DNA of 64,000 nucleotides from a virus, in IMG/VR virus record IMGVR_UViG_3300046786_000502, positions 52,894-116,893 of that record; one strand, written 5' to 3'. Positions 25,892 to 50,988 of this stretch are shown one piece after another (the first letter of the stretch is position 1; each line of letters opens with the position of its first letter). The notes under the pieces were generated by a model, which did no database searches, was not told the DNA's origin, and worked only from the letters and a program-made list of their open reading frames with translations. Both the position numbers and the translations under genes were made by a program.

Positions 25892-25919
25892 AACCCTGGG
25901 CATGGTTTAAAACTGCCCA
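25892..25919 (+). ncRNA. Repeated H-type pseudoknot, copy A
   Basis: AACC-C-TGGGCA-T-GGTT-TAAAAC-TGCCCA, 7 nt after the hsp20 stop. Confidence 0.7.
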
Positions 25920-25940
25920 CATTATGCTATAATTAAGCTT

Positions 25941-26390
25941 ATGGATAATTCAACTATTGTGAGCCAGCTACAAGCATTGCTGGCAGATAACATTGCTCTA
26001 AAATTTAAAGCACACGGATACCACTGGAATGTTGAAGGAGATGACTTCAAACAGTTCCACGATTTTTTCGGGGATATCTATGAAAATTATGATGCTGCAA
26101 CAGATACATATGCAGAGTGGATAAGAGTATTCCAAGCGTATGCCCCATACAGATTGGTAGATTTCTTTGATGCCTCATCTGTTGGCGAACCATCTATTGT
26201 AGGTGACCCACAGCCAATGCTAGCTGACTTATATACATCTATTGAAAAACATATTGCAGACTTAATAGTTGCAGGAAAGATGGCTACTGCAGCAAATGAA
26301 TTTGGGTTGGCAAACTTTTTTGCAGATCGTCAAACTATTTCACAAAAATTCTGCTGGCAAATTCGTGCAAGTATTGAAATAGAAGATTAA
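25941..26390 (+). CDS. dps: Dps/ferritin-like protein
   Basis: KAHGYHWNVEG..F..FH.FFGDIY, DTYAEWIR, final W. Confidence 0.88.
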   Translation: MDNSTIVSQLQALLADNIALKFKAHGYHWNVEGDDFKQFHDFFGDIYENYDAATDTYAEWIRVFQAYAPYRLVDFFDASSVGEPSIVGDPQPMLADLYTSIEKHIADLIVAGKMATAANEFGLANFFADRQTISQKFCWQIRASIEIED

Positions 26391-26410
26391 AAAACTGATA
26401 TAATAATATT

Positions 26411-26500
26411 GTCCCTCATACAGGCCTACGCTTAGGATGGATTAGTTACCTATTTTATGACCGTGGCCTTCGTGCTTGAATAGCCTGTATGGGGGCTTTT
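26411..26500 (+). ncRNA. Candidate ~88-nt small RNA
   Basis: TGATATAAT promoter at 26396; ends pair (CATACAGGC/GCCTGTATG extended by GTCCC/GGGGC); followed by TTTT; no ORF. Confidence 0.55.
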
Positions 26501-26533
26501 ATGTTATAATTGGTATGTAAAGAACGGATTATA

Positions 26534-27586
26534 ATGAAACTTGAGCTACAGAGTGTCTTGGAGCAAAGAAGACAAAACAACAAACTGAAGACTGATAACA
26601 TTTTGCCAGTACCATGGGTTGAATTCAAAGACACTTATGAAAAAGCTTTTGCAGAAATAGATCCATACAAGACAGATTATTTGGCTATTTCTGCTGGTAA
26701 TTCATTTTCATCAAAAGTAAAAGGTCAGAATGAATTGGATGATCAATCTGTAATTTATGACTTTGCTGGCCCAGGCAAGAAGGTAGTCCTTACCCTATAT
26801 CACCAGTGGTATCATTTTCTGTTAGACACCCTAGTCTATGTATATCAAGCTTGGAAATATGACAAAGACATAAAATTTATTTTTATTGAAGATCTGAAGC
26901 ATTCACAATATTTTGAAGAAAAGCTAATGCCATTTCTATTAAAGTTTTTAAACCATTTTAATATTACAAATTATTCTTTTATTAAAAGAGAAGCTTTTCA
27001 AAAAAATCCTGTTCTACTAATTAATAACTATTATTATGAAAAATTAGAGTTTGGATCAGATATTTATTGGATGTGTAATGAATTTATTAAAGATATGTAC
27101 CCAGATGATGATGCTGAGCCATTCAGGAAAGTATACATATCAAGAAGAAAAAATTATGTTAAACGATCTGATGACCAGGGCTTTGTTCAACAAGAAGGAT
27201 TTGATGTGTCACGTGTTGGCAATGAAGAGGCCGTAGAGGATTATTTTAAAAAATATAATTGGGAAATTATGTACCCTGAAGATTTTGATTCAATAGATGA
27301 TCAAGTTAAATATTTAAGAGAAACAAAATATTTGATGGGGGCATCTAGTGCTGGTTTGATAAATGCTTGCTTTATGAAGCCAGGGACCAACTTGGTTGAA
27401 CTACTAACCACAATACACATGTTAAAAGCAGGTGAGCATCAGACACAATTCCACGTGCTATATACGGTTATGTGTTGGAGCCTTTCTATTTTCCATGCCT
27501 CAATTCCAAATATTAAAAATGAGTTAGCCCTTTTTGAATTCATAGAAAGCAATAAGCATGCCAAAGAGCTTATACAGAACACGTAA
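26534..27586 (+). CDS. Glycosyltransferase family 61 (DUF563)-like protein
   Basis: WYHFLLD, KVYISRR, PEDF.SIDDQV, SSAGLINACFMKPG..LVEL. Confidence 0.82.
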   Translation: MKLELQSVLEQRRQNNKLKTDNILPVPWVEFKDTYEKAFAEIDPYKTDYLAISAGNSFSSKVKGQNELDDQSVIYDFAGPGKKVVLTLYHQWYHFLLDTLVYVYQAWKYDKDIKFIFIEDLKHSQYFEEKLMPFLLKFLNHFNITNYSFIKREAFQKNPVLLINNYYYEKLEFGSDIYWMCNEFIKDMYPDDDAEPFRKVYISRRKNYVKRSDDQGFVQQEGFDVSRVGNEEAVEDYFKKYNWEIMYPEDFDSIDDQVKYLRETKYLMGASSAGLINACFMKPGTNLVELLTTIHMLKAGEHQTQFHVLYTVMCWSLSIFHASIPNIKNELALFEFIESNKHAKELIQNT

Positions 27587-28403
27587 TTTTAATCAGATTG
27601 CTGAATTACTGAATGGGGCAGTCCTAGAAAAAAGATCTACCAATGTAGATAAGCTTAGGTCTGAGTATAGATACTATTATGCATGCAATACTGTTATGCA
27701 AAGATATATGGTAAAACCGTTTAGCTTTAAGGTTGAAAGCGGAGAGGCCTCATATCGTATGCATAATTTGAAGTCTCCAGACTTGGGATATCTTTATGCT
27801 AATGAAATGCTAACTGAAGATATGTTTAAGGCCTTCCTCAATAGCTTTGATATCTTTAGAAATTCTGAAGGTGCTAAGCCATTTCATCCTGCAGAATCCT
27901 ACAGTTTAGTGGTGCGAAAAGCTAAAACTAGAATTCTGGATATGTATGGCGGTACATTGCCACAAGATAAGAGAGAGTTGATTCGTAGACTTGATCTTGC
28001 ATACAATCACTACAATAACTTTAGACTTACATCGTTTGCCAGACCATCACATGGAGACCCATGCTTGTCAAATGTTGTCATCACAAAAAGTGGAAATGTA
28101 AAGATGTTTGATCCCAAGGGTATAGAGTTTTTCTATTTAGATGAATACTATGACATTGCAAAAATATCACAGAGTATTCATGGTGGCTATGAGCATATAG
28201 TTCATGACAAGACCAATTTTGTTCCACAATACCAATCAATTTTTGAAAAATATCTAGATGCTAATAAAATAAACATTGGGCTAGTGCGTGTGTATGAGGC
28301 ATCGCTGTTTATATCTATGTGTCCAATGCACCAGGATAGACCTGACCATATAGATAGATTTTTTAATACGGCAGATAAGATACTGAAAGAGGTTAACTTT
28401 TGA
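27558..28403 (+). CDS. APH/choline-kinase-like phosphotransferase
   Basis: HGDPCLSNV, FDPKG, YYDIAKISQS. Confidence 0.8.
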   Translation: MPKSLYRTRNFNQIAELLNGAVLEKRSTNVDKLRSEYRYYYACNTVMQRYMVKPFSFKVESGEASYRMHNLKSPDLGYLYANEMLTEDMFKAFLNSFDIFRNSEGAKPFHPAESYSLVVRKAKTRILDMYGGTLPQDKRELIRRLDLAYNHYNNFRLTSFARPSHGDPCLSNVVITKSGNVKMFDPKGIEFFYLDEYYDIAKISQSIHGGYEHIVHDKTNFVPQYQSIFEKYLDANKINIGLVRVYEASLFISMCPMHQDRPDHIDRFFNTADKILKEVNF

Positions 28404-29089
28404 TTAACGTTGTTGTTCTGATGTCTGGTCTTGGAACCAGATTCTATAATAGTGAATTTGAAAAGCCAAAGCCTTTTATAGAAGTAAATGGAAAAGAGAT
28501 GTATCTAAGGTCTGCTCACAACTGTCCTGGTGATCGTTTTGTGTTTGTTGTTCAAAAAGAAAATTCTATTCGTTTCAACATGCACACCAAGGTTTTTTCT
28601 GAGTTTGAGTCTTCTGTGATTATTGAGTTGGATGGCGTTACATCAGGTCCTGCTGTATCTGCACTAAAAGCTGCAGAATGGATTGATAACGACAATGAAC
28701 TGTTGATTATAAATTCTGATCAAGAATTATTGTGGAATTATGATGACTTTATTTCTAAGGCAAGGGAGTCTGATGGTTGCGTTGTGGTTGTTGAACGAGA
28801 GGGAGACCGCTGGTCTTTTGCAAAAGAAGTAGATGGTGTCGTTACACTGATAGCTGAAAAAAATCAAATAAGTAAAAATGCATTGTGTGGAATACATTAT
28901 TTCAAAAAGGGTAGTGATTTTATTAAGTATGCAAAACAAATGTTAGAAGACGATAATAAAGTTAATAATGAATTCTATGTATCTAACGTATATAACTATG
29001 CCATTGAAGATGGCAAAAGAGTAACAATCTATAAAGCAGACGATATGCTTGATTATGGAACACCAGAAAGCTTGAGGGCCTATATATAA
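28400..29089 (+). CDS. Sugar-phosphate nucleotidyltransferase-like protein
   Basis: MSGLGTRF, PKPFIEV, NSDQ, AEK, NNEFYVS, GTPE. Confidence 0.85.
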   Translation: MINVVVLMSGLGTRFYNSEFEKPKPFIEVNGKEMYLRSAHNCPGDRFVFVVQKENSIRFNMHTKVFSEFESSVIIELDGVTSGPAVSALKAAEWIDNDNELLIINSDQELLWNYDDFISKARESDGCVVVVEREGDRWSFAKEVDGVVTLIAEKNQISKNALCGIHYFKKGSDFIKYAKQMLEDDNKVNNEFYVSNVYNYAIEDGKRVTIYKADDMLDYGTPESLRAYI

Positions 29090-30600
29090 TGCTTAATCTA
29101 TTAGGAATCAACAGATATGATCCAAAAGACATTGCACCACGTGTGATTGAAACTTTGAAAAATAGTCAAATAATTTTTGGAGAGCATGAGGATGCAGCCA
29201 AAGAATTTATGAAGATGGTTGGTGTAGACTATTCAAACAAAGAAGTCTATGAGGTAAATGCCAGCAATGAATCTAAATATGCTAGATGGGCGGTAGAACA
29301 GGTTAGGCTTGGTAAAAGCATTTCATTCCTTACTGGGGATGGGTATCCAGTTATTACAGATCCAGGATATAAGCTAGTAAATACGTTTATTCAAAATGCT
29401 GAAGAGATTCGTGTATACCCTCAAGTATCTGCAATTGTTTCATCTGTTATCTTGTCTGGATATCTTGGTGCAAACAATGAGACATTCTTTTATGGTGGGA
29501 TGCTAGATTTCATGGACGAGAAGATGAAGCTAGAAGCAATGTCCTCAAGGGATACTATTGCGGTTTATCTGTTCCAGGGCACTTTTCCTGCAATAAGAAA
29601 TCTTGAAGAAATATATGGACCAGAACGTGATGTAGTTATTTGTGTAAACATGGGTCACGACACACAACAGGTTATCCACACTAAGGTTGGATTTTTGGCC
29701 AATGGGATTCCTGGAAAATCTATTTATGCTACTTTTGTAATTGCTCCAATAAATAGAGAGTCATTCTTTAATATGAACAAAATGCCAAACAACGTTCTTG
29801 AGTATGGCAACTTAAAAGAAATTGGAATACAGCAAAGAACTAATTATATTCATAATAGTTTTAATTTTAGGTGTGATGAGTTTACCCAAAACCATTCTGA
29901 AAAACTACACGTTCTTTTTAGTGGTTGCTCTAATACTTGGCCACAGGCAATTGATGAGGACAGGGGCTGGGCAAAACAAATGTACTACAGCCTAGATCAA
30001 TCATATAATTTAAGTGGATACTACAATCTTGGAATGCCTGGTTCTACCATATCTGAGATTTGTCAAAATGTAATGAGTTATTGTAAGATTTTTGGCAAGC
30101 CAAAAATAATATTTTTAAATCTCCCAGATGCTGGTAGAGAATCAAATATTCCAGAGAGTCCAAACAGTAAAGATGAGTATACATCTTTTGAAAAACAACA
30201 GTATGCAGACAAGGAATATGAAAAGCTTGAGGGATATTGTGCTGTAAACAACATATTGCTAATTACTTTTAGCTGGACAGACACTATGGTTAAATCTGGA
30301 GGCTACGTTCTTTCTAACCTTAAAGAGCTGCTTGGTAAAAATCACAAAAATGTATCTATATCAAATAAGTTTAATACGTATAAACATTTTGATAAAAATG
30401 ATTTTAAAGAATATGTAGTGAAATACTTCGAGGATAACCCAGAAGATCATGATGCTGATGTGGCAAGGGATGCTGATCACCCAGGTCACGCCATACATTG
30501 GGCATGGTACAATTGCTTATATGAAATGTTTACAAAAAATACTCAATACCTTAGCTTCATTGAAGGCTTCAAGAAGGTACAAGAAAGCAATCAAGCGTAA
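29089..30600 (+). CDS. Fusion of an RsmI-like tetrapyrrole-class methyltransferase and an SGNH-like domain
   Basis: N-half: GYPVITDPGYKLV, SAIVSSVILSG; C-half: NSFNFRCDEF, FSGCSNTW, DADHPG. Confidence 0.7.
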   Translation: MLNLLGINRYDPKDIAPRVIETLKNSQIIFGEHEDAAKEFMKMVGVDYSNKEVYEVNASNESKYARWAVEQVRLGKSISFLTGDGYPVITDPGYKLVNTFIQNAEEIRVYPQVSAIVSSVILSGYLGANNETFFYGGMLDFMDEKMKLEAMSSRDTIAVYLFQGTFPAIRNLEEIYGPERDVVICVNMGHDTQQVIHTKVGFLANGIPGKSIYATFVIAPINRESFFNMNKMPNNVLEYGNLKEIGIQQRTNYIHNSFNFRCDEFTQNHSEKLHVLFSGCSNTWPQAIDEDRGWAKQMYYSLDQSYNLSGYYNLGMPGSTISEICQNVMSYCKIFGKPKIIFLNLPDAGRESNIPESPNSKDEYTSFEKQQYADKEYEKLEGYCAVNNILLITFSWTDTMVKSGGYVLSNLKELLGKNHKNVSISNKFNTYKHFDKNDFKEYVVKYFEDNPEDHDADVARDADHPGHAIHWAWYNCLYEMFTKNTQYLSFIEGFKKVQESNQA

Positions 30601-30615
30601 GAAAGACTATATATA

Positions 30616-32034
30616 TTGAAAATCTTTGGCTTTAACGAAACCTCTCATGATGCTTCTGTGTCTGTAATTAAAAATGGAATGATTCTATTTGCTGGTCATG
30701 CTGAAAGATATAGCAAAGAAAAAAATGACTGGTATACGAACAAAGAATTGTGGAATGACGCATATATGTGGGGCAAGCCAGATGCCATTGCATACTATGA
30801 AAAGCCGTGGCTAAAGAAGATTAGGCTATCTTTGCGTGGTGGTGCTGCAGACTGGAAGCCATTACATAGATATGATGTTGCATTTAAACATCACTACTCT
30901 CATGCATGTGCAGGATACTATACTAGCCCATTCGACAAGGCAGTAATTGTTGTCCTTGATGCGATGGGAGAGTTTGCGACATCTACTGTTTGGTCTGGCG
31001 ATGGCGAAGATATAAAGTTAGTCAAAGAAGTTAAATATCCGCTAAGCTTTGGTCTATTTTATACTGCTTTTACCAAACTAATAGGACTAAAGCCAAATGA
31101 GCACGAGTACATTCTTATGGGAATGGCAGGGTATGGAGATCCAACAACCTACTATGAAGACGTATTATCATATTTTCCCAGCATAACTAGCCAGAAGTAT
31201 AACTACCACAAGGGGATAACAGACTGGCCATACAACATTCTTAAAGAACAGGACAAGTTTGACATTGCTGCTGCTGTTCAGTTTGTATATCAAGAAAGAC
31301 TAATGGAGTTTATGTCTAAAGTTAGACAGGACCTACCAGAATACAATAATCTTGTTTTTATGGGTGGGTGTGCCCTGAATGCCTCAGCTAATACAAAGCT
31401 TTGGGATCTGTTTGATGATATTTGGATAATGCCAAATCCAGGAGATGCTGGAAGCTCTTTAGGTGCAGCTCTTGCACTACGTGGACAGCATGTTAAGTGG
31501 GAAGGCCCATATCTTGGGCATGATCTTGGTAACGAATACCCAGTTGATGCAATCTTTAATGAGATAATGACAAATAAAATTTGTGCTGTTGCTGCAGGTA
31601 GAGCAGAGTTTGGACCACGTGCATTAGGAAACAGAAGTATCTTGGCAGATCCACGTGACCCAGATATTAAAGATAAAGTTAATCTAATTAAACAAAGAGA
31701 ACTCTTTAGGCCATTTGCCCCTGTAGTCATGGCAGAACATGCATCTGAATGGTTTGATATGGATTATGAATCTCCATACATGCAATACACACCCAAGTGC
31801 CTCAAGCCTGAGCTGATTCCATCAGTGGTCCATGTAGATGGTACATCTAGAGTTCAGACAGTCACAAAGGAGCAGCATCCAGGGCTGTACGAGGTTCTGA
31901 GACGTTTTTATGAGGCAACTGGAGTTCCAGTACTACTGAATACCAGTTTAAATGTAAAGGGCCAACCATTGCTTAATGACAAAGAAGACATTAAGCTTTG
32001 GGAGCAAACATACAATACCAAGATTGTGATATAA
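30616..32034 (+). CDS. NodU/CmcH-family carbamoyltransferase
   Basis: HDAS, ERYS, HHYSHA, GGCALN, GDAGSSLGAA, EFGPRALGNRS, FRPFAP, HVDGTSRVQTV, LNTSLN. Confidence 0.93.
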   Translation: MKIFGFNETSHDASVSVIKNGMILFAGHAERYSKEKNDWYTNKELWNDAYMWGKPDAIAYYEKPWLKKIRLSLRGGAADWKPLHRYDVAFKHHYSHACAGYYTSPFDKAVIVVLDAMGEFATSTVWSGDGEDIKLVKEVKYPLSFGLFYTAFTKLIGLKPNEHEYILMGMAGYGDPTTYYEDVLSYFPSITSQKYNYHKGITDWPYNILKEQDKFDIAAAVQFVYQERLMEFMSKVRQDLPEYNNLVFMGGCALNASANTKLWDLFDDIWIMPNPGDAGSSLGAALALRGQHVKWEGPYLGHDLGNEYPVDAIFNEIMTNKICAVAAGRAEFGPRALGNRSILADPRDPDIKDKVNLIKQRELFRPFAPVVMAEHASEWFDMDYESPYMQYTPKCLKPELIPSVVHVDGTSRVQTVTKEQHPGLYEVLRRFYEATGVPVLLNTSLNVKGQPLLNDKEDIKLWEQTYNTKIVI

Positions 32035-32041
32035 TTTTAGT

Positions 32042-32239
32042 ATGTCAGAAAGCATGTTTGAATCATTATTTGGCTTTAGTAAAAAGCCTGCAGAAGCTCC
32101 TGTGGCAGATAGTATGCCCCTAACAAATGGAGAGGTGTTTGGAGATCTTAATCCAATTCACCAACGTATCAGTGACGCTGAGTGGGGTTCTAATCAGAAT
32201 GGACTACCTGACTCATGGCAATTGACAACAGACCAGTAA
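32042..32239 (+). CDS. Small hypothetical protein
   Basis: ATG directly after TGATATAAT promoter. Confidence 0.55.
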   Translation: MSESMFESLFGFSKKPAEAPVADSMPLTNGEVFGDLNPIHQRISDAEWGSNQNGLPDSWQLTTDQ

Positions 32240-33195
32240 ATACAAAAACTATATTTGTAACCATTCCGTCTTACAATGACGTATCTCTTTTGCGTACCCT
32301 AGACAGGGCATTAGAAACAGCACGGTATCCAGAGAACATATACTTCTGTATTGGGCTACAGTATTCTGAAGAACTTATGCCAGATCTATCTAAGTATAAA
32401 GACAACCCAAATTTTATTTTCCTAACATACGATGTAGATAAACGTCCAGGAGTTTATTGGATTAGAAGAGAGATGGCAGAGAAACACTCTGACCAAGACT
32501 ACTTCCTAATGATAGACTCACATATGAATTTTGTTGAAAACTGGGATGTTAGATTAATCAATGACTACGAGTCATTAGTTAGACATCATGGTACAAGGAC
32601 AATTCTCTCTAAGCCAACAATGTCTGAGGTTGGACATACATTTGATAATGGGCATATACATGATATCTGTAGGTGGAAAGCAGACTTTTCTTTTGATCCA
32701 AACAGTATAGAAAGAACAATACTGCCATGGGTTGATATGGTTCCATGGGATGGAACAAGATTTATTAAGCACCTTTTATCATGCAGCCACTTCTTTTTTA
32801 CTAACAAGCTTTGGCTTGAAGAGGTTGGGTTTTTCAATACCATCAGATCATATAGTGAAGAAATGACAATCGCTGTTTCATCCTTTTTATCTGGATGGGA
32901 CTTCTATTCTATGCCAGAATTTATACACATAGGTCATGATGATGACGAAACATCAAAGAAAATCTACGGAGGAATGTATACTCTGGCACAGGGTAAAAGG
33001 TATCAGGCAATCTTTGAGAATGATGAACTAAAGAAAGAGATTGATAGTTTTTGCTTGCTGGACAACTCCAATATCTTTAAGGTAAGAAATCAGGCAAGAT
33101 CGATAGATGAGTTTTATATTGAAGCTGGAGATGAGATATCTGATGCAAGAAAACAGCTATTGATTAATTTAAATCTAAATCAATTCCAAGCTTAA
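32215..33195 (+). CDS. GT60/Gnt1-like glycosyltransferase
   Basis: IFVTIPSYND, YFLMIDSHMNFVENWD, YSEE...A..SFLSGWD, RSIDEF. Confidence 0.8.
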   Translation: MAIDNRPVNTKTIFVTIPSYNDVSLLRTLDRALETARYPENIYFCIGLQYSEELMPDLSKYKDNPNFIFLTYDVDKRPGVYWIRREMAEKHSDQDYFLMIDSHMNFVENWDVRLINDYESLVRHHGTRTILSKPTMSEVGHTFDNGHIHDICRWKADFSFDPNSIERTILPWVDMVPWDGTRFIKHLLSCSHFFFTNKLWLEEVGFFNTIRSYSEEMTIAVSSFLSGWDFYSMPEFIHIGHDDDETSKKIYGGMYTLAQGKRYQAIFENDELKKEIDSFCLLDNSNIFKVRNQARSIDEFYIEAGDEISDARKQLLINLNLNQFQA

Positions 33196-36514: not shown

Positions 36515-36588
36515 GGGGCAGTAGTTCAGGTGGTTAGAGCACCACTCTTATAAGGTGGCTGTCGTTGGTTCAAGTCCAACCTGCCCTA
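36515..36588 (+). tRNA. tRNA-Ile(TAT)
   Basis: ccact-CTTATAA-ggtgg arm; full cloverleaf; A73. Confidence 0.88.
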
Positions 36589-36619
36589 CAAACAAAACAA
36601 ATAATGATTGGAGAAACAA

Positions 36620-36910
36620 ATGATTAAACCTCTTGAAGATAAGGTTCTTGTAAAGCCTATTGAGGAAGAAGAAAAGACAAGTGCAAGCGGATTGATTATC
36701 TCAAAGCTTGAGAAAGAAAAGCCAACAGAAGCAATTGTTATTGCAGTTGGTCCTGGATTCACTGCAGCAAATGGAGACAAGGTCACTATTGACCTAAAGC
36801 CAGGTGACAAGGTTATCTATTCTAAGTACTCTGGTACTGAGGTTGAACACAACTTTGAGAATTTTATTATCCTGCCATACCGTGACATTTTTGCAGTAAT
36901 CGAGGAATAA
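36620..36910 (+). CDS. groES: Co-chaperonin GroES
   Basis: IKPLEDKVLV, TSASGLII, AVGPG, GDKVIYSKYSGTEV. Confidence 0.93.
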   Translation: MIKPLEDKVLVKPIEEEEKTSASGLIISKLEKEKPTEAIVIAVGPGFTAANGDKVTIDLKPGDKVIYSKYSGTEVEHNFENFIILPYRDIFAVIEE

Positions 36911-37077
36911 TGGAACACTTTCTAGATGTAGTATTTGGTGTAGATCACATCGTTGCAGAATTTTTTTGGAATGCAGTATTTGCTTTGGTTGTATTTTTAT
37001 TTTCTAAAGCAAATGCACTACGAAAAATTCATAAATATATTGATGATAGGCACGAGGTAAAGCATGACAAGTACTGA
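36910..37077 (+). CDS. Small membrane protein (not in ORF track)
   Basis: MEHFLDVVFGVDHIVAEFFWNAVFALVVFLF...; TAATG overlap. Confidence 0.6.
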   Translation: MEHFLDVVFGVDHIVAEFFWNAVFALVVFLFSKANALRKIHKYIDDRHEVKHDKY

Positions 37078-37279
37078 GCTGTCCTGTAATTGGCCAGAGT
37101 CATATCTACATGTTACACAAAATCTGCTCGATGATCAACGCAAGCATCAAAGGTTTGCGGTTTATAATGAAATCATCAAAGATCTTGAGTCAGAATTATA
37201 TGCAAATAAGGGTGAAGATTTGTACTATGCCACAGCGATTGAGTCTCTAATAGATAGGCTTAAGAGCAAGGTGGCATAG
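37064..37279 (+). CDS. Hypothetical protein
   Basis: GAGG RBS, ORF in operon. Confidence 0.55.
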   Translation: MTSTELSCNWPESYLHVTQNLLDDQRKHQRFAVYNEIIKDLESELYANKGEDLYYATAIESLIDRLKSKVA

Positions 37280-37287
37280 CCCATCAT

Positions 37288-37361
<74 letters not shown>

Positions 37362-37380
37362 CAACTGATATAATATTATT

Positions 37381-42818: not shown

Positions 42819-42966
42819 GATAATCTCCATTAGGAAGTTGCTTCCATATTTAGGTGGCATCTGCATACGTCAACATAAGCAAAGATATTCTTCTTAATCT
42901 CTGCTATGTCCCAGAACGCTGCTGGCTTATCACAGTATGCACATTTTTCCATGATTCAATTATAGC

Positions 42967-43314: not shown

Positions 43315-43324
43315 TACCCCTGAG

Positions 43325-43453
43325 TTTTACACAGAGTTATCCACAGATTGTTAGGTTTTGGAGATATGTTTGTTAGGTTTATAATGTCTGATTTGTTAGG
43401 TTTTAAGATGGTTTGTTAGGTTTTAGAGATAGTTATCCACAGGTTTATCCACA
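43325..43453. repeat. DnaA boxes plus iteron-like repeats (candidate origin)
   Basis: TTATCCACA at 43337, 43433, 43445; TTGTTAGGTTT at 43348, 43370, 43393, 43413. Confidence 0.75.
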
Positions 43454-44196: not shown

Positions 44197-44214
44197 AGCC
44201 ACCCGAAGGTGGCT
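44197..44214 (-). terminator. Intrinsic terminator ending the minus-strand gene array
   Basis: AGCCACC-cgaa-GGTGGCT preceded on + by AAAAGAAA (U-tract on -). Confidence 0.75.
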
Positions 44215-44519
44215 ATTTCAAATTAGATTATTTGGGACAATCGGAATAGGGGAAGTATTCCTTTTCCTCGCAGGTGCAGAAGCCAAAGTCTTCTACCTGA
44301 GTAGTGTGTGTTAGTGATGCCAAATCAGACCAGTAATAAACCTTTTCCATTATTCTCCTACCTTCCATTCCATGATATCAGCAATAGTATTCATTGTCAA
44401 GTGCAAACTACAATCACAGTCTCCACCCATGTTTTCCATGAAGTCAAAGTGTGAATAGTTATCTTCATATATCTTAGTAACCAACTCATGTACTGCATAT
44501 GGGGTTGTCATAGTTTCTC

Positions 44520-44786
44520 CTAACTATTGGCCATTACGTAGTCTAGCATAGTTTCGTCTTCATAGCAACCACAGCATTCAACACAAATAATCTCATTATC
44601 CTTGCTGCAGTTTGGACACATGTATTCTGACATGTTCATCTCAGGGTCTTCACAGAACTCACAGATAGTCTGCTGCAGTTCTTCAAAGGTGTAGTCTCTT
44701 AGGTGCTTATCTACCTTGAACATATGTTTTACCCTTGCCTTCTGTCCATGCCGCAATTTCTTCGTCTTCTGAGTTAGCGATATCAA
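44520..44786 (-). CDS. Small Cys-rich hypothetical protein
   Basis: CEFC, CPNC, CVECCGC; true start probably internal. Confidence 0.55.
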   Translation of the reverse strand: MISLTQKTKKLRHGQKARVKHMFKVDKHLRDYTFEELQQTICEFCEDPEMNMSEYMCPNCSKDNEIICVECCGCYEDETMLDYVMANS

Positions 44787-45060
44787 TCATTAAATCATTA
44801 GAGAACATCCAGTCACGTACCCAGTCATAGAGGTGTTCAGTTCCATACTCAAGGGTAAATTCAGGGGTATTGGATATGAGTGCTTCCCATACAATATCCT
44901 GAGTACGAATATATAGTTCTTCATCTTGATAGAAGGTATCAATGATATCCCATACCCATAGCCATACAAGGCTAGGGAATAGAGTCTCATTTAGTTTGTT
45001 TAGTTTATCTAGAATGTCTCTTAGGACTTCTAGTTCTTCTAGTTTGGGGTTGTTCATCAT
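44707..45060 (-). CDS. Hypothetical protein
   Basis: AGGAA RBS; minus-strand operon. Confidence 0.65.
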   Translation of the reverse strand: MMNNPKLEELEVLRDILDKLNKLNETLFPSLVWLWVWDIIDTFYQDEELYIRTQDIVWEALISNTPEFTLEYGTEHLYDWVRDWMFSNDLMIDIANSEDEEIAAWTEGKGKTYVQGR

Positions 45061-45069
45061 ATTCCTATT

Positions 45070-45342
45070 CTACGCTTTATCTAGCATATTGTCAAGTGTC
45101 TCAAAGCCTGTGTCTTCGATACCCAGCCCTGCCAGCAGCAGATCCCAAGTCTCGTTAATAAGATTAGTTGACATCTCATTCTCCATCTTTACGACACCAT
45201 TATCGACCAGGTATGCCAAGGGCAGCCCAAGATCGTTATACTCAATGTAATCAGCAAAGTCTTCATCTGCTCTATAGTTAAGCCATAGTTCAGATAAGAT
45301 AGTTACTTTATTCTCTATAGTTGTGGATTGTGATTCCGACAT
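45070..45342 (-). CDS. Hypothetical protein
   Basis: GGAGGAG RBS; YNDLGLPLAY motif. Confidence 0.7.
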   Translation of the reverse strand: MSESQSTTIENKVTILSELWLNYRADEDFADYIEYNDLGLPLAYLVDNGVVKMENEMSTNLINETWDLLLAGLGIEDTGFETLDNMLDKA

Positions 45343-45511
45343 CGTTGCTCTCCTCCTGCATTGCTTCTGTCATTATTTCAACTCTACGAAATGTGGTGCT
45401 AGGTCTCATTCGTGCTAGATAAATACCAACACGCTCAATGTCTAGTCTTAGGTCACAAATCATATTTGAAATCTTGACTGCGACTTTCTCTTCGTCTGTC
45501 ATATATTTCAT
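45308..45511 (-). CDS. Hypothetical protein
   Basis: AGGAG RBS. Confidence 0.6.
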   Translation of the reverse strand: MKYMTDEEKVAVKISNMICDLRLDIERVGIYLARMRPSTTFRRVEIMTEAMQEESNDVGITIHNYRE

Positions 45512-45651
45512 TCATTTGTCTCCTGTCATCATTATAGCAAAAATAAGGGGAGAGGGCAAGTAGTGAAAGTAGGAAATTTCTACTCACCCCCTCCCTGGTG
45601 GTACAGCCGTCAACCCCTTAACAGCTGTACTATCCTAGGAGCTAAGCTCGA

Positions 45652-46005
45652 CTAGGAAGCTTCATATACTGGGAATGACTCCAGATAATCTTTAATTGTA
45701 TTAGGCATGATGCTAGCATAGTCCTGCAGGTACCCATACATGCCATACCATGCATCCCCACCATCAAAGTAAGGGTCATTGTTAAGGCCCAGAGCTCTAA
45801 TCTCTTCAGGTGTCATGGGACGTGCATCAGCTACCTCCTGGTGCCCAGCTCCATCTACCTTGTATACGTGCACATGCCATGACGTAGGGTCATAGTACCA
45901 CTCATCAGTCATAGGGTCCTGAATCTCCTGCATGAAGATGTTCAGGTCATAGTCAATCATGGTCTTAGCTTTCTTACGAAATAATGTCAGCATTGTCTTC
46001 TCCAT
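45652..46005 (-). CDS. Hypothetical protein
   Basis: ORF in operon; start uncertain. Confidence 0.6.
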   Translation of the reverse strand: MEKTMLTLFRKKAKTMIDYDLNIFMQEIQDPMTDEWYYDPTSWHVHVYKVDGAGHQEVADARPMTPEEIRALGLNNDPYFDGGDAWYGMYGYLQDYASIMPNTIKDYLESFPVYEAS

Positions 46006-46402
46006 AAATCTGCTTGAGTGCTTCTACGGTGTCACAGTCGATATCTACTAGGCCCTCATCACATTCAGGGCATTCAGGATTGTATTCGCCATCTTCAGTC
46101 TCATCACTGCAATCACAAATACGGTAGGTCCAAGTAGGAATCTCTGTATATTCATCTTCCCAAGGATTCTCAGTGATGTAGTAATGAATGCGATTGACGA
46201 AGTGCCAGCCTGCTACGATGTAAGTACCTTCATCACCATCTACTTCAGTCCAGATGTGCTTAGGGTCTTGTGTCTTGACGAAATCAACTTCTTCACCGTA
46301 TGTTTCAAAATGAATAAGGCTGTCGTCTTGATACTTACTGATATTATTTTTGATTGGCTTAAAGGTATCTACCCAAGAGCCATACGTGTAGAACTTAGAC
46401 AT
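45974..46402 (-). CDS. Hypothetical protein with C-terminal Zn ribbon
   Basis: FETYGEE, GWHFVNRIHYYITE.PW, CDC...CPEC. Confidence 0.7.
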   Translation of the reverse strand: MSKFYTYGSWVDTFKPIKNNISKYQDDSLIHFETYGEEVDFVKTQDPKHIWTEVDGDEGTYIVAGWHFVNRIHYYITENPWEDEYTEIPTWTYRICDCSDETEDGEYNPECPECDEGLVDIDCDTVEALKQIYGEDNADIIS

Positions 46403-46589
46403 TAAGTGGGGTCTCTCTTCCATACTCTCTGATTACGTCTTCGAACTTGTCATTGCCAAATCCGTCATGTTCATCAATGATAGCAGATAGTTGCTCTGCT
46501 GTCAAATCGTCAGTGTCTAGTACCCAAACTGGGTGGGTAGGGTCAAGCTCCCACCAATCACCATTAACATTAGTAATATACTTACTCAT
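46395..46589 (-). CDS. Hypothetical protein
   Basis: GAGGA RBS; operonic. Confidence 0.6.
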   Translation of the reverse strand: MSKYITNVNGDWWELDPTHPVWVLDTDDLTAEQLSAIIDEHDGFGNDKFEDVIREYGRETPLNV

Positions 46590-46761
46590 CTTCATCCTCT
46601 TCTTCGTTCTCAAACTCTTCAACTTCGATAGAATAAACACCATCATAAATCATATTATCAAAGTTCCAACCAAACTCCTCTGCCTCTTTTTCATTGGCAA
46701 ACTCATCGTCATCACTTTCATACCAATATGTAACAGTCGTTTTAATTGTGTGCCGTGCCAT
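46582..46761 (-). CDS. Small acidic protein (not in ORF track)
   Basis: MARHTIKTTVTYWYESDDDEF...EEEDEDE; fills the gap. Confidence 0.6.
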   Translation of the reverse strand: MARHTIKTTVTYWYESDDDEFANEKEAEEFGWNFDNMIYDGVYSIEVEEFENEEEDEDE

Positions 46762-47003
46762 TAACAGTTCTCCGATACAACAGGGATGTTCTCTACACCC
46801 AACATCATAAGTACGCTAGTATAAGCAGATATCATACCCTCGATGAAATCTCTCTCGTGGTCATTGATATCAAGAGGCTCAATCATGTCGCCTAGTTCAT
46901 GCAGTTCCTCAATAAGATTATTACACATTCCAATTGGGTCTGCATAGTGAATGGCTTTGGTGTTCCATTCGATTTCAGGGATTGTTCGTTCTACTTTCAT
47001 CAT
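46761..47003 (-). CDS. Hypothetical protein
   Basis: AGAAAGGA RBS before MMKVER. Confidence 0.6.
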   Translation of the reverse strand: MMKVERTIPEIEWNTKAIHYADPIGMCNNLIEELHELGDMIEPLDINDHERDFIEGMISAYTSVLMMLGVENIPVVSENC

Positions 47004-47016
47004 GCTGCTTCCTTTC

Positions 47017-47547
47017 TTAGAAGTGGAAATCCACAGGTACAAGATACCAGTTTTTGTTGCCTTTGTCAATACTCTCTAGCATATATTTCGGGGTAGTGGA
47101 ATAGTTATCCAAATCATAGAAATAACTATCAGAGTTCCAAGTACCATTGATAAGGTCTGCTGCCTTTTTGATGTAGTATGAGTTCATATCAAATCTGTCC
47201 TCATCTTCAAATGAACCAGATACAAACTTATCAATAAGATTAGTAAATGTATCTATTTTGATGTGTGCTTGTATGTATTCCATTTCTGAAGTACGACATG
47301 CAAGGCTTTTATCAATAAGTTCCAAGAAACTATTAGGGCTATTATCATATGAAAGAACGTCGTTGTGGCTATCTTTATACTGGTTACTAGAATCACTATT
47401 CCAACGACCACCACCAACAACATACCAATCAGACCAACCACCTAGTCCCTCACTTTCTGAATACATCTCATCAAACTTGTGCTTGACTGTGTCTGCTGCT
47501 GCCTCTGCTGATTCTGCAGTTATTGCGATTTGTTGAATTACGTGCAT
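47017..47547 (-). CDS. Hypothetical phage protein (WSDWYVVGGGRW ... VPVDFHF family)
   Basis: AGAAAGG RBS and promoter directly upstream. Confidence 0.75.
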   Translation of the reverse strand: MHVIQQIAITAESAEAAADTVKHKFDEMYSESEGLGGWSDWYVVGGGRWNSDSSNQYKDSHNDVLSYDNSPNSFLELIDKSLACRTSEMEYIQAHIKIDTFTNLIDKFVSGSFEDEDRFDMNSYYIKKAADLINGTWNSDSYFYDLDNYSTTPKYMLESIDKGNKNWYLVPVDFHF

Positions 47548-47800
47548 GGGGGTTTCCTTTCTACTTTCTAATACCTCAATTTTACACTGACCCACTGACA
47601 TTTGTCAAATACATTTGTGGGAAATCCTGGAAATTGATCTTAATCTCGTAATTGATTAAATAATCTTATTATAGATATGCACATGGATTTCTGGGAAATT
47701 TGTTATCATATCGTAACCTGAAATACTTGACAAATAATATAAGTTAGGGCTCGCCACATTTTTGCAGCTTTGTCAAGTGCAACACGATCACCAGAGGTGA

Positions 47801-47828
47801 GGGCAGTTTTACATGTTGCCCAGCATGT
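47801..47828 (-). ncRNA. Repeated pseudoknot, copy B
   Basis: ACATG-C-TGGGCA-A-CATGT-AAAAC-TGCCC on minus strand, 4 nt after stop. Confidence 0.7.
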
Positions 47829-47832
47829 TTTG

Positions 47833-48846
47833 TTATGCGTTAGCCATTACGCCTTGCACAACTTTTAGCAGACGATTCTTTTCTGCGTTTATCATTGGGT
47901 CAAATCCACTTGCACTTGCAAGAATAGATTCGTTAGAACCACCACGTGCAGAGCGATACCAGTCGAGACGTTCAGTTAGTGCATTGAAAGCACCCCAAGC
48001 GTTACCAGCAATCATGCCGTTGAATTGTCCAGTGTAAATGTCGTTGATGACATCCACCTTGTTTTCCCACTTCTTGACAGCACCCTTAGTGTCCTTGTCA
48101 GGCTTAGGGTATGCAGACAGAATGATGTCGTTGAATTGCTTAGCGGTGACTTCTTGCGAAATCATAGCGTGTGCCATCTTGTCGAACTCATCCATGTATT
48201 TGTTAGCAAGACCAAGAGTCTCACGTGCAACAGCAATCTTGCCTTCTGCGGTTTGCGTGTGACGAATCTTGAAAGACTGCTTAGGGCCTTTACCACGTGC
48301 CCCAAGAGCAAGATTCAAAGTGTTAGCACACACAACACGAACAGGTGTGATAGACGCTTGAATTGCAATCGAACCATCGTGAGAGGTGTTGATTAGAAGA
48401 TAAGTCTTTACCTTATCTGCAACGCCGTTAGGGTCAAGAACAGTCTCACGTTCTAGTGCCATGCTACCAAAGACAACACGTCCGCCCTTGATAGAGCCAG
48501 CAGTTTCCCAACGTCCGCCACCATCTAGGATGTTGTCACCGAATGAGAAGAGGTCTTCGTTCTGAAGAACCTTGTAACGCTCTCCAACAACGCCAAGAAC
48601 ATCGTTCTGAGAATTGTCGAATGGGTTAGTGCGAGTAACAAAGAAATAGTTCTTGTCACTTGAGAATGTGTCAGGAATTGAAACGTCTTCGAGACGAACA
48701 TTCCAGTCGTTTAGGTGTGCAAGCGAAAGCATTTCTGAAGTAGTAACTTCATCTTGAAATACAGTTCCAAGACCATGCCATGCAGGCTCTCGCAATGAAG
48801 CGAAAGCGGTGTTTCCGTTTGCATCTGATTCTAGCAAATGAGCCAT
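47833..48846 (-). CDS. DUF932 / TIGR03299 phage-plasmid protein
   Basis: MAHLLE, PAWHGLG, YKVLQNE, ETAGSIKGGR, SHDGS, TPVRVVCANTL, RHT, WGAFNALTE. Confidence 0.9.
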   Translation of the reverse strand: MAHLLESDANGNTAFASLREPAWHGLGTVFQDEVTTSEMLSLAHLNDWNVRLEDVSIPDTFSSDKNYFFVTRTNPFDNSQNDVLGVVGERYKVLQNEDLFSFGDNILDGGGRWETAGSIKGGRVVFGSMALERETVLDPNGVADKVKTYLLINTSHDGSIAIQASITPVRVVCANTLNLALGARGKGPKQSFKIRHTQTAEGKIAVARETLGLANKYMDEFDKMAHAMISQEVTAKQFNDIILSAYPKPDKDTKGAVKKWENKVDVINDIYTGQFNGMIAGNAWGAFNALTERLDWYRSARGGSNESILASASGFDPMINAEKNRLLKVVQGVMANA

Positions 48847-48966
48847 GAGAGGCTCCTTTCTGTTGTAGGGTTTATTTCTATTACTATAATTTTACATGAC
48901 CCCACCGACAATGTCAAGTTATACAGGCAAAAATCTTGGGCGTTTCATAACGTTCTCGTAACAAAG

Positions 48967-48987
48967 TTATCCACAAAGTTATCCACA
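48967..48987. promoter_or_regulatory. Tandem DnaA boxes
   Basis: TTATCCACA at 48967 and 48979 (12-bp period). Confidence 0.7.
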
Positions 48988-49021
48988 GGGGGCTCGCCCA
49001 AGATCCCCAGGGCATGGAGAA

Positions 49022-49051
49022 TGAGCAGTTTACATGGACGTGCTCAGGTCC
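49022..49051 (-). ncRNA. Repeated pseudoknot, copy C
   Basis: GGAC-C-TGAGCA-C-GTCC-ATGTAAAC-TGCTCA. Confidence 0.7.
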
Positions 49052-49096
49052 CTTAGCATGCAGGCAGAAAGAAAGGATGAACGCCTGCAGTACCTC

Positions 49097-49294
49097 TTAC
49101 TCTACGTTAACCCATTTCATTGCGGTACGTAGAAGATTGTCATAGTCTCCAGACATGCTTTCATTCATATACTGTTCAACCTCTTCAGGTGTTGCTCCAG
49201 CTTTTCGAATGGCCTTAGATACGGCTGCCATGATAGCGAATGCATTTCCGTCATTGCCAGTTAGTTTTACGGTTACCGTTTGATACTTGCTCAT
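49097..49294 (-). CDS. Conserved small phage protein (DGNAFAIM...SGDYDNLL)
   Basis: GGAGG RBS; recognisable motif. Confidence 0.75.
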   Translation of the reverse strand: MSKYQTVTVKLTGNDGNAFAIMAAVSKAIRKAGATPEEVEQYMNESMSGDYDNLLRTAMKWVNVE

Positions 49295-49482
49295 TACAAT
49301 ACCTCCGTTAGTGTCTCTGAATAAGTTACATCATTATCTAGATTGTCAAACTTGTAACCTAGATTTTCATAGTCTGATTCTTCCTCATAGCCTTGTGATA
49401 CAAAAAACTTTGCTAGGGCCTCATCAGGGCTGTCTGCCATTACTGACCAACTCTCACCTGTTAGGATTGTGAATTCTTCCAT
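49294..49482 (-). CDS. Hypothetical protein
   Basis: TAATG overlaps at both ends. Confidence 0.6.
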   Translation of the reverse strand: MEEFTILTGESWSVMADSPDEALAKFFVSQGYEEESDYENLGYKFDNLDNDVTYSETLTEVL

Positions 49483-50000
49483 TATGCCATTACCTCTTCC
49501 TTTGAGAACTCATTCAAGTATAGTTCAGGGGTAGGTAGTTTGTCAAGAGCAAACACAACCCTTCTTCCACCATACTGTGAGACAAATAGTCTAGTTTGGA
49601 AATCAATTGTGTAGATACCCTCACACATCAAATCATCTTCAATGAAGTCAATTTGGTTAGATAGGGGCACACGACCAGTTGAGTAGGTAACAACCTTGAG
49701 AATGTCTGAACCTGTATTTCTAGTTAGACTAGGATACATTACAGAAAACTTATCGCTGTTATCCATTGTCATCATACCATCTGGGGTAACATATGGCTTG
49801 TACATCTCTTCCAACTCTGATTCAGTAGCGAAGTAGCATTTGAATAGTGCCTTCTCCAACTGCTCTACAACATTGTAGCCAGAGATGAATGATAAAATAT
49901 TTAGACCTTGTCCATCTGGATAGTGGTCCCATTGGCCATACTGTGCAACAACAGTCTTACCAGTTGAATCGATTACCTGTGTGATACCTCTTGTACCCAT
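49482..50000 (-). CDS. Hypothetical phage protein (MGTRG...QWDHYP family)
   Basis: Strong RBS and promoter upstream. Confidence 0.75.
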   Translation of the reverse strand: MGTRGITQVIDSTGKTVVAQYGQWDHYPDGQGLNILSFISGYNVVEQLEKALFKCYFATESELEEMYKPYVTPDGMMTMDNSDKFSVMYPSLTRNTGSDILKVVTYSTGRVPLSNQIDFIEDDLMCEGIYTIDFQTRLFVSQYGGRRVVFALDKLPTPELYLNEFSKEEVMA

Positions 50001-50155
50001 TTCTTTCCTTCTTTCTCTTTATACCCTCAATTATAGCGATAGGGTCTGACATTTGTCAAGTTATTTCCTGGCGTGTCGTAAGCATTTTCTTAAATGTTAC
50101 CAAAACGTTATAAACGGGCTCGCCCTCAGCTGATCATTTGTCAAGCCCATTAGGG

Positions 50156-50182
50156 GAGCAGTTTTACAACTTGCTCAGGTTA
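50156..50182 (-). ncRNA. Repeated pseudoknot, copy D
   Basis: TAAC-C-TGAGCA-A-GTTG-TAAAAC-TGCTC, 5 nt after stop. Confidence 0.65.
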
Positions 50183-50187
50183 CCCTG

Positions 50188-50367
50188 TTACTTCCCAACA
50201 AGGAAGAGCGAGATTGGCGACTTACGCTTCTGCTTTACGGGAATGTTCTTGGTCTGGTTAGTAGCACCAATGAAGTGTCCATTAGCGTCACGAACTACTG
50301 CCTTGTAGATTTCACCATTCTTGGTGTTCCACTTTTCTGTTGCGATTACAATCTTCTTACGAGCCAT
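50188..50367 (-). CDS. Small basic protein (not in ORF track)
   Basis: MARKKIVIATEKWNTKNGEIYKAVVRDANGHFIGATNQT...; AGGA RBS. Confidence 0.65.
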   Translation of the reverse strand: MARKKIVIATEKWNTKNGEIYKAVVRDANGHFIGATNQTKNIPVKQKRKSPISLFLVGK

Positions 50368-50401
50368 TTTTATTTTCCTATTCTTGTTGGGGTTATTAGA
50401 G

Positions 50402-50432
50402 TGAGCAGTTTAGCATTGACTTGCTCAGGTCA
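50402..50432 (-). ncRNA. Repeated pseudoknot, copy E
   Basis: TGAC-C-TGAGCA-A-GTCA-ATGCTAAAC-TGCTCA, 10 nt after stop. Confidence 0.7.
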
Positions 50433-50442
50433 GTTTCTCAGT

Positions 50443-50889
50443 TTAGAGAAGTTCCATTACAGAGTTGTAGGTTGAAGCATTGACTTCTTCCTGCTGTGTC
50501 ATACGAAGCACCTTCAAGTTCTTCTTCAACAAGTCCAACTTGGTGGTGTAATCACGACCATAGTAAGTCTGCTGATTTGGTCGCTGTGGTTCTTCTGGCT
50601 TCTTTGGGAAACCTAGTGCCTCAGTATCAAACTCAACAGAGATACCATTGTAGCGGTATGACGAAGTGATACGGATTAGAGAGCCACTCTCAGTTCCAAT
50701 GTTGTCAGGGTTGCCTAGTGCCTTGATAGCGTGAGCAATAACATCTTTTTCATACTGCTTAGCGTCTGCTTCATACTGCTTACGCTTGCCAGCATACTCC
50801 TCAATGTCCTGCTCTACCTTGGCGATTTGGTTTTCTACCTCTGCGATTAGAGAAGCGGTTGGGATTTTTACTGATAGGCTACGAGCCAT
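50443..50889 (-). CDS. Hypothetical coiled-coil protein
   Basis: AGAAAGGA RBS before MARSLSVK. Confidence 0.75.
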   Translation of the reverse strand: MARSLSVKIPTASLIAEVENQIAKVEQDIEEYAGKRKQYEADAKQYEKDVIAHAIKALGNPDNIGTESGSLIRITSSYRYNGISVEFDTEALGFPKKPEEPQRPNQQTYYGRDYTTKLDLLKKNLKVLRMTQQEEVNASTYNSVMELL

Positions 50890-50959
50890 TTGTTTCTTCC
50901 TTTCTTTCTTTGTTAGTTCTATTTTACTTGATTTATTGGGGGTTGTCAAGTTAGTTGGG

Positions 50960-50988
50960 TGGGCAGTTTATTGTGATACCCAGCACAA
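50960..50988 (-). ncRNA. Repeated pseudoknot, copy F
   Basis: TTGTG-C-TGGGTA-T-CACAA-TAAAC-TGCCCA, 8 nt after stop. Confidence 0.7.

Follow-up and report, generated by a model that had tools for sequence, protein, structure and literature searches.

Gene-end H-type pseudoknots in a freshwater phage genome: an RNA family absent from Rfam 15

Six gene-end pseudoknots and the evidence for their fold

The DNA analyzed here is a 64,000-nt window, the second half of one 116,893-bp phage genome from freshwater (IMG/VR record IMGVR_UViG_3300046786_000502; 39.8% G+C), and the element under study is a small H-type RNA pseudoknot that lies just downstream of genes. An earlier note on this DNA had claimed six such pseudoknots in sense orientation, and scans of the window and of the whole genome confirmed all six, their places and their strand (Table 1). 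Each copy is 27-30 nt in size and consists of a first stem (P1, 4-6 bp), a 2-nt loop 1 (CU), the 5' strand of a second stem (P2, GRGYA), one free base, the 3' strand of P1, a linker of 4-9 nt ending in AAAC, and the 3' strand of P2 (UGCYC). P2 comprises 5 bp, and the junction between the stems is 0-1 nt. P1 was paired in six of six copies, with wobble pairs included in copy 4, and P2 was found as GGGCA/UGCCC in two copies, as GAGCA/UGCUC in three, and as GGGUA/UGCCC, with one G.U pair, in the remaining one. All six upstream stop codons are TAA, and every copy is sense to the upstream open reading frame (ORF). The spacers claimed earlier, 4-10 nt after a UAA in five copies and 45 nt in one, were recovered by measurement, and the claim that the copies carry no U-tract or classic terminator tail also held for six out of six. 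The 9-mer AAACTGCYC occurred six times in the window, every time within a knot copy, against 1.22 expected, and none of 100 shuffles gave six. Scans of the 116,893-bp genome with the exact motif and with a relaxed descriptor revealed no further credible copies. The three extra genome matches of the relaxed descriptor were without the conserved letters, and this descriptor skipped copy 5 itself owing to its A-content filter.

Table 1. Pseudoknot copies, neighboring genes and promoter-like sites in the window
Feature	Position	Strand	Sequence or description	Context
Copy 1	25892-25918	+	AACC-CU-GGGCA-U-GGUU-UAAAAC-UGCCC	7 nt 3' of Hsp20 gene TAA
Copy 2	47801-47828	-	ACAUG-CU-GGGCA-A-CAUGU-AAAAC-UGCCC	4 nt 3' of DUF932 gene TAA
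Copy 3	49023-49051	-	GGAC-CU-GAGCA-C-GUCC-AUGUAAAC-UGCUC	45 nt 3' of TAA of 65-aa phrog_1933 gene
Copy 4	50156-50183	-	GUAAC-CU-GAGCA-A-GUUGU-AAAAC-UGCUC	4 nt 3' of 59-aa gene TAA
Copy 5	50403-50432	-	UGAC-CU-GAGCA-A-GUCA-AUGCUAAAC-UGCUC	10 nt 3' of 168-aa gene TAA
Copy 6	50961-50989	-	GUUGUG-CU-GGGUA-U-CACAAU-AAAC-UGCCC	7 nt 3' of 75-aa gene TAA
Gene	25471-25884	+	Hsp20 family (PF00011, E 1.4e-19)	upstream of copy 1
Gene	47833-48846	-	DUF932 (PF06067, E 5e-50)	upstream of copy 2
Three-gene unit	49097-50000	-	172 + 62 + 65 aa (last phrog_1933)	ends before copy 3
Gene	50188-50367	-	59 aa	between copies 5 and 4
Gene	50443-50949	-	168 aa	ends before copy 5
Gene	50997-51224	-	75 aa	ends before copy 6
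Promoter-like site	50921-50949	-	sigma-70-like, 11/12 matches	begins 12 nt past copy 6
Promoter-like site	50030-50059	-	sigma-70-like, 12/12 matches	about 97 nt past copy 4
Promoter-like site	48889-48917	-	sigma-70-like, 11/12 matches	about 106 nt past copy 3
Promoter-like site	47579-47608	-	sigma-70-like, 11/12 matches	about 193 nt past copy 2

Nested (ordinary) folding of the six sites was unremarkable (z from -0.7 to -2.7), and the case for the fold therefore rests on sequence comparison. A pattern scan of IMG/VR with CCTGRGCA...AAACTGCYC, in which P1 was left unspecified, matched at least 119 contigs. An alignment of 64 sequences showed double-sided changes in eight of nine pairs and a covariation score of 0.647, compared with 0.193 after shuffling and at most 0.09 with slid partners. 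Its sequences had been picked for pairing, which makes its 100% paired figure circular, and four tests independent of pairing were used: the free-P1 pattern, a free-P2 descriptor, anchoring on the invariant letters, and the orthologues of the DUF932 gene. In the free-P1 test, a P1 of at least 4 bp was present in 62 of the 88 non-redundant matches listed (24 sequences), whereas with permuted partners this number averaged 12 and never exceeded 22. The free-P2 descriptor fixed only P1 pairing, CU and AAAC and was run on the listed contigs and the genome (1.19 Mb). Of the 572 non-seeded hits in these sequences, 84 had a fully paired P2; three shuffles, with about 400 hits each, yielded 0, 4 and 2 such cases. 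The variants recovered included GAGCA/UGCUC, GGGCA/UGCCC, AAGCA/UGCUU, GGACA/UGUCC, GGCCA/UGGCC, GAACA/UGUUC, GACCA/UGGUC and GAGUA/UACUC. When candidates were anchored on the invariant letters, with the contigs L120 and L121 left out here and in the U-tract count below, all seven free pairs were Watson-Crick in 41 of the 72 unique candidates and 28 had one exception. These single exceptions comprised 18 G.U or U.G wobbles and 5 A.C, as expected of sense-strand RNA.

IMG/VR contains 426 relatives of the DUF932 protein encoded next to copy 2, on its upstream side, and the best 80 of the 426 were fetched by protein similarity alone. A strict knot was found within 90 nt past the stop in 67 of these best 80 orthologues, and the other 13 carried the element with one imperfect pair. 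At this site P1 reads ACAUG, ACGUG, AAUUC, AAAUC, AUUC, ACUC, CCAC, AUAUC and others, each with its partner, and P2 reads GGGCA, AGGCA, GAGCA, AAGCA, AGACA or GAGUA with partners that match. As judged from the orthologues, the DUF932 site is a case of compensatory change at one conserved position. The knot is also borne by Hsp20 homologues in five contexts, the window's own included. Collectively, these comparisons strongly support the view that the H-type pseudoknot is real and works as sense-strand RNA, and the covariation of P1 and P2 asserted in the earlier note was borne out in both stems in contigs chosen regardless of pairing. An element acting at the DNA level or in antisense is unlikely in view of the 18:5 excess of wobbles over A.C and of the sense orientation of all copies relative to the upstream ORF.

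Individual copies showed additional features. Copy 3 is the only window copy with a second structure: its spacer (49052-49096, -) contains a separate stable hairpin of -14.6 kcal/mol between stop and knot. In copies 1 (25885-25918, +) and 6 (50961-50996, -), the stop spacer can pair with the 3' strand of P2 in place of the loop, GGCAGUU with AACUGCC in copy 1 and GGGUA with UGCCC in copy 6, which would lead to a nested fold. Ordinary folding yielded this spacer pairing in copy 1 and partly in copy 6, and the nested alternative is possibly exposed only when no ribosome occupies the spacer. A switch between spacer and loop as a property of the element was dropped, as inspection by eye found no such complementarity in the flanks of the other copies.

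Distribution and placement of the family

At gathering score, a search of the whole window against Rfam 15 returned only tRNAs and a manA RNA, with no match at the six sites. At E <=10, the region 47700-51100 gave one chance hit, Atu_L1 (16.5 against a 60-bit threshold), which overlaps copy 2 together with the 3' end of its upstream gene, and the 61 nt around copy 4 gave no hits. The family had not been recognized in the earlier note, and Rfam likewise provided no match at gathering score and no credible one at E <=10. A description of the motif was not found in literature searches, and PMC10690425, which surveys 10,006 candidate structured RNAs of viruses, does not contain it in its main text; its supplementary tables might list it. 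These gene-end pseudoknots are a large family absent from Rfam 15, that is, a phage gene-end class of H-type pseudoknot.

The knot was also found in named phages of several hosts. In Arthrobacter phage Amigo the order is the stop of the SSB gene, 6 nt, the knot, 3 nt and a tRNA-Gly gene; in Mycobacterium phage Labelle the knot follows gene 85 by 6 nt, and in Bacillus phage Edson it lies 9 nt after a stop. Paracoccus phage ParMal1 (T7-like Autographiviridae) and Synechococcus phage S-EIVl carry it after an annotated stop with one mismatch each, in P1 and P2, respectively. When 596 Gb of prokaryote genomes were scanned with a narrow pattern, 86 stretches matched, where about 39 were expected by chance, and only 21 of them fold. 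The same pattern gave at least 59 matches in the viral contigs listed, in 58 of 119 IMG/VR loci. The element is thus commoner in viral contigs than in cellular genomes, which suggests that it is chiefly a phage device.

For the placement counts, copies with identical flanks were merged before each count, and ORFs used for stop spacing were open frames of at least 40 codons, a crude definition that involves no gene prediction. The counts draw largely on the IMG/VR contigs listed and are thus at-least figures. P1 began 4-10 nt after the stop in 123 of the 293 non-redundant copies with a nearby sense open frame and 1-3 nt after it in only 2, while nine apparent overlaps with a stop (-8 or -9) were the knot's own UGA in another open frame. 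When the spacing was measured to the fixed CU, its onset was abrupt, at 9-10 nt. About one third of the copies lay 11-19 nt past the stop, and the tail of the distribution reached 60 nt. In contrast, of 235 hairpin-plus-U terminators on the same contigs, 34 started at 3 nt or less from the stop and 20 at 4-10 nt. The distance from the knot to the next start codon varied from about 15 to 400 nt, and many copies preceded a ribosome-binding site (RBS) and an ATG within 20-40 nt. These results indicated that the upstream stop, and not the downstream gene, serves as the anchor of the knot. The mRNA helicase site of the ribosome lies at about +11 relative to the P-site codon; on this basis, a spacer of 4 nt would be the closest position that stays unmelted with the stop in the A site. 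Among stops followed by a knot, 51 were TAA, 15 TAG and 6 TGA (n = 72), and among other ORFs of the same contigs the counts were 1017, 352 and 435 (n = 1804). TGA was depleted at the former (odds ratio 0.29, p = 0.001, calculated on copies that are mutually non-independent).

The sequence 3' of the knot was also constrained. Position +1 was A in 70% of copies and G did not exceed 9% from +1 to +9, and this G-poor tail starting with A is consistent with an unstructured 3' tail. A same-strand tRNA gene followed 3-9 nt downstream in 63 of 375 non-redundant copies and at 16-200 nt in only 2. Such knot-tRNA junctions arose in at least six independent contexts, comprising a DUF932-knot-tRNA-Asp group and junctions with tRNA-Gly, Asn, Leu, Glu and Lys. 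A run of at least four T within 12 nt downstream was present in 41 of 173 copies, compared with 10 of 173 in a control window, and in this U-tract subset the knot stands in place of an intrinsic terminator's hairpin. In about one quarter of the copies outside the window (e.g., L003, L004, L030, L056, L127 and L131), A-C/U-UUUUUUAUU comes right after P2.

Neighboring genes, promoters and RNA contigs

The genes and promoter-like sites adjoining the six copies are listed in Table 1. Downstream of copy 1, an extended -10-like TGCTATAAT starts after 10 nt. The minus-strand early block contains 12 promoter-like sites matching at 11-12 of 12 positions and knots at five gene ends, and it has one strong classic terminator only (7 pairs, 5 of them G-C), at its far end. 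Four of the five minus-strand knots precede a promoter-like site at 12-193 nt. Copy 5 directly precedes the next gene, whose ATG lies 35 nt downstream, with no strong promoter-like site (>=10/12) between.

The RNA-library evidence consists of assembled contigs, which reveal neither RNA ends nor levels. Three freshwater metatranscriptome runs (X1-X3) contained 60-79% of the sampled phage words, and a further run (X4) gave 2 short matching pieces only. RNA-library contigs from three studies span copies 3, 5 and 6, with DNA carry-over possible, and these contigs are consistent with transcriptional read-through. Summed contig depth looked higher over the genes that end in a knot and stepped down along the minus strand; as this quantity cannot rank genes, no conclusion was drawn from it. 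In both X2 and X3, contigs break off at 50431, where copy 5 has its 5' edge. Variant letters at 50392-50413 in another X2 contig point to an assembly branch between strains and not to an RNA end. In this strain variant (50392-50413, -), the AAAC-UGCUC of copy 5 loses the C of AAAC and the terminal A-U pair, and the variant 3' strand also follows a DUF932 orthologue in L232. In a blastn search of the region, only DUF932 genes of Streptomyces phages matched, and tblastn of a 742-aa protein gave one weak match.

Several other features were noted in the window. Some early promoters, for example that at 48889-48917 (-), combine TTGACA with TGTCGGTG-N8-TAnnnT. The intergenic repeat GGCGAGCCC occurs six times exactly and nine times with at most one mismatch, against 2.3 expected. 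Its exact sites are at 47747-47755, 48990-48998 and 50116-50124 on the minus strand and at 51394-51402, 52723-52731 and 53164-53172 on the plus strand, so that the orientation switches near 51 kb. The repeat often lies between inverted CTTGACAAA ... TTTGTCAAG arms, which are complete at 47747 and 51394; a role as a bidirectional promoter/operator or as an iteron is conceivable. TGTGGATAA, which we take to be the DnaA-box consensus, has eight exact sites, including 48967-48987 (-), 43433-43453 (-), 43337, 29672, 57611 and 58237. Among them are two tandem pairs with a spacing of 12 nt, of which one lies shortly downstream of copy 3. With one-mismatch sites included, 28 sites were counted where chance predicts 24, which is no excess. 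Nine tRNA genes lie at 9042-9923 and 36515-37361, and the manA RNA (RF01745, 64.7 bits) lies within the tRNA cluster at 9121-9302.

A possible cap for the upstream message and its alternatives

To explain these placement rules, we tentatively favor a reading in which the knot would serve the message of the upstream cistron as a mechanical 3'-end cap that requires no protein. The knot would fold in the 3' untranslated region of the preceding gene and would approach the stop as far as is possible outside the mRNA channel of the terminating ribosome. A few bases past the knot, an RNA 3' end could then arise through RNase P where a tRNA adjoins, through termination where a U-tract is present, or through cleavage of the G-poor tail by an endonuclease. 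The tail left behind would be too short for 3'-to-5' exonucleases to engage. Where a U-tract is missing, as is usual, the polymerase would not be stopped and downstream genes would still be transcribed. For engagement, PNPase and RNase II/R require some 6-10 unpaired bases at the 3' end, and a message with so short a tail would therefore be shielded. The observed 4-nt minimum matches the helicase position given above, so that the terminating ribosome presumably need not melt the knot. The occurrence of copies in phages of Arthrobacter, Mycobacterium, Bacillus and, with a T7-like phage, Paracoccus fits a physical effect that requires no protein and would suit any host and polymerase. The fold, the placement rules and the distribution are observations; from them we infer the roadblock activity and its direction. 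Among the functions suggested in the earlier note, an exonuclease block or end-marking device fits best.

Bacteria stabilize 3' ends with terminator hairpins, REP (repetitive extragenic palindromic) elements, and cassettes of a T4-type stem-loop plus an early promoter. The phage knot shares with these its position after a stop and before the next promoter, the order of gene, structure and promoter, and the presumed protection against 3' exonucleases. It differs in being a pseudoknot that usually lacks a U-tract, is unseen by ordinary folding and stands at least 4 nt from the stop, whereas the hairpins of 3'-end stabilizers often abut or overlap the stop codon.

Several points weigh against the cap. 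A structure of 9-11 bp is small, and RNase R, where present, unwinds structure. CU, P2 (mostly GAGCA/UGCUC), the closing C-G pair of P1 and AAAC are conserved far beyond the needs of pairing; this excess could indicate a specific binder, or else tertiary contacts. The depletion of TGA may simply stem from high expression of the genes concerned, or it may hint at the termination step. The direction of protection is deduced solely from where the knot is placed, and the spacing rule would suit a role directed at the ribosome just as well.

Such a ribosome-directed role, in which the knot acts on the ribosome at the mRNA entrance and either modulates termination or recycling or blocks sliding and re-initiation, thereby insulating neighboring cistrons, appears unlikely to us. 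The sharp 4-nt lower limit and the 4-10 nt mode, which terminator hairpins do not share, speak for it, as do the TGA depletion and the presence of the ribosome as the only machine that all hosts seen have in common. The spacing also overlaps the 5-9 nt spacer range of frameshift stimulators. In terms of fold, the phage knot has the same topology and proportions as the luteovirus-type H-type knots, for example that of beet western yellows virus (BWYV), at a similar size of 27-30 nt. Shared are a short stem 1, a 2-nt loop 1 starting with C, a one-base junction and an A-rich loop 3 of 6-7 nt, which could lie in the minor groove of stem 1. The distance of 4-10 nt from the A-site codon is a further likeness. 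However, the phage knot follows a stop and not a slippery heptamer, serves no extended frame, has a 5-bp stem 2 with conserved letters, and is carried by phages, not by plant RNA viruses. A stalling of scanning eukaryotic ribosomes and a stimulation of frameshifting are described for coremin-type knots in PMC10520033 and PMC10321173. On the other hand, the third of the copies at 11-19 nt, the tail to 60 nt and copy 3 at 45 nt behind a hairpin do not agree with a ribosome role, and many copies precede promoters, tRNAs or long gaps, where re-initiation is irrelevant. No useful readthrough frame was present. Slippery heptamers (X XXY YYZ) 5-9 nt upstream were found in 17 of 372 copies and, in a control window, in 34 of 372; inspection by eye revealed none before the six window copies, and a -1 frameshift stimulator was rejected.

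A lower probability is assigned to the knot as a recognition tag, by which a host or phage RNA chaperone, RNase or regulator would process, localize or regulate the messages. The strong conservation of the letters of loop 1, P2 and AAAC across unrelated phages would suit such a tag, as would the much greater frequency of the element in viral contigs than in cellular genomes. However, compact H-type knots make tertiary contacts at just these conserved letters, and the carriers infect hosts of at least four groups and differ widely in genome type, with no shared phage protein apparent, although no systematic check for one was made.

It is still less probable that the knot is a 5'-to-3' barrier, which as an analogue of exoribonuclease-resistant RNA (xrRNA) would protect the downstream cistron or tRNA against RNase J or the 5'-end scanning of RNase E. 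Actinobacteria, Firmicutes and cyanobacteria have RNase J, and some copies stand directly upstream of an RBS plus start codon or of a tRNA, both of which would suit a barrier. However, the position is fixed to the upstream stop and variable to the downstream start, and four of the five minus-strand window copies precede a fresh promoter, so that nothing downstream on the transcript would be there to protect. Xrn1, the enzyme blocked by coremin, is not known from bacteria. Coremin (xrRNA-C) and xrRNA-WCC occur in plant and fungal RNA viruses, usually in 3' untranslated regions, and a mechanical block is proposed for them in PMC10520033 and PMC10321173. As in Watson-Crick coremin, the phage knot has a short hairpin of 4 bp, a loop that pairs with a downstream spacer, an A-rich spacer with AAAC, and a 3' untranslated site. 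It differs in its loop, CUGRGYA(N) in 64 of 64 aligned copies compared with the consensus YGAD/YGNNAD given in PMC10520033, and in the P2 of 5 bp instead of 3 bp, and its placement is tied to the upstream stop. The second hairpin (hp2), which coremin needs for Xrn1 resistance, was not enriched: of 372 copies, 92 had a hairpin of at least 4 bp that started 0-3 nt past the knot, compared with 122 of 372 in a control window, and the tail is G-poor. The loop-spacer pairing of the phage knot is antiparallel and Watson-Crick, as in xrRNA-WCC, and P2 covaries, but it comprises 5 bp and other letters. The phage knot resembles xrRNA-WCC in kind, and we make no claim of homology.

A terminator or attenuator, factor-independent or factor-assisted, in which the knot itself pauses or terminates RNA polymerase, is the least probable of these functions. 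Knots do stand before strong promoters in a block with a single strong classic terminator, and the subset in other phages has a U-tract right after P2. However, no window copy and only about one quarter of those elsewhere have such a tract; copy 5 and many others precede an RBS and start codon within 20-40 nt, which leaves no room for a promoter; the tRNA genes 3-9 nt downstream (63 of 375) must be co-transcribed; the knot is present in a T7-like phage that brings its own polymerase; and RNA-library contigs, with the caveat of DNA carry-over, span copies 3, 5 and 6. An intrinsic terminator was rejected for the class, although the minority with a U-tract (41 of 173) may qualify, and an obligatory form of the termination signal that the earlier note had entertained is contradicted by the copies directly before an RBS and start codon or a tRNA. 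The readthrough signal of that note fared no better, in that the next in-frame stop came before the 3' end of the knot in 191 of 252 cases, with a median extension of 7 codons; this also dismisses a stop-codon readthrough stimulator of the murine leukemia virus (MuLV) type. A tRNA-like CCA end was rejected, since ACCA followed 19 of 359 copies and AAC, ACC and ACT were about equally common. The preQ1-I aptamer is also a small H-type knot with an A-rich 3' tail, but the phage knots follow unrelated genes and do not lie in the 5' leaders of queuosine genes. The junction of 0-1 nt would leave no room for the base that pairs the preQ1-I ligand, and there was no Rfam hit to this riboswitch (RF00522).

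A broader form of the cap, which we regard as doubtful, would be an RNA roadblock that needs no protein, is shared among the phages of many bacterial phyla and is placed at the leading edge of the terminating ribosome, as the prokaryotic equivalent of the xrRNAs of eukaryotic viruses. Such a roadblock would seal each cistron that ends in a knot, from either side, against exonucleases and perhaps against sliding ribosomes, would uncouple message stability from transcription termination, and, where a U-tract follows, would become a pseudoknotted intrinsic terminator. The stop-spacing rule itself offers a natural readout of the reach of the terminating ribosome on mRNA. If the proposal is true, the knot would provide a very small portable part for stabilizing or insulating messages in engineered operons. 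It would also explain the scarcity of classic terminators in early regions full of strong promoters, and it would supply a concrete mechanism that sets the lifetime and yield of single genes in read-through transcripts. With a size of 27 nt and hosts from Actinobacteria to Proteobacteria, the knot would then be among the commonest structured RNA elements of phages.

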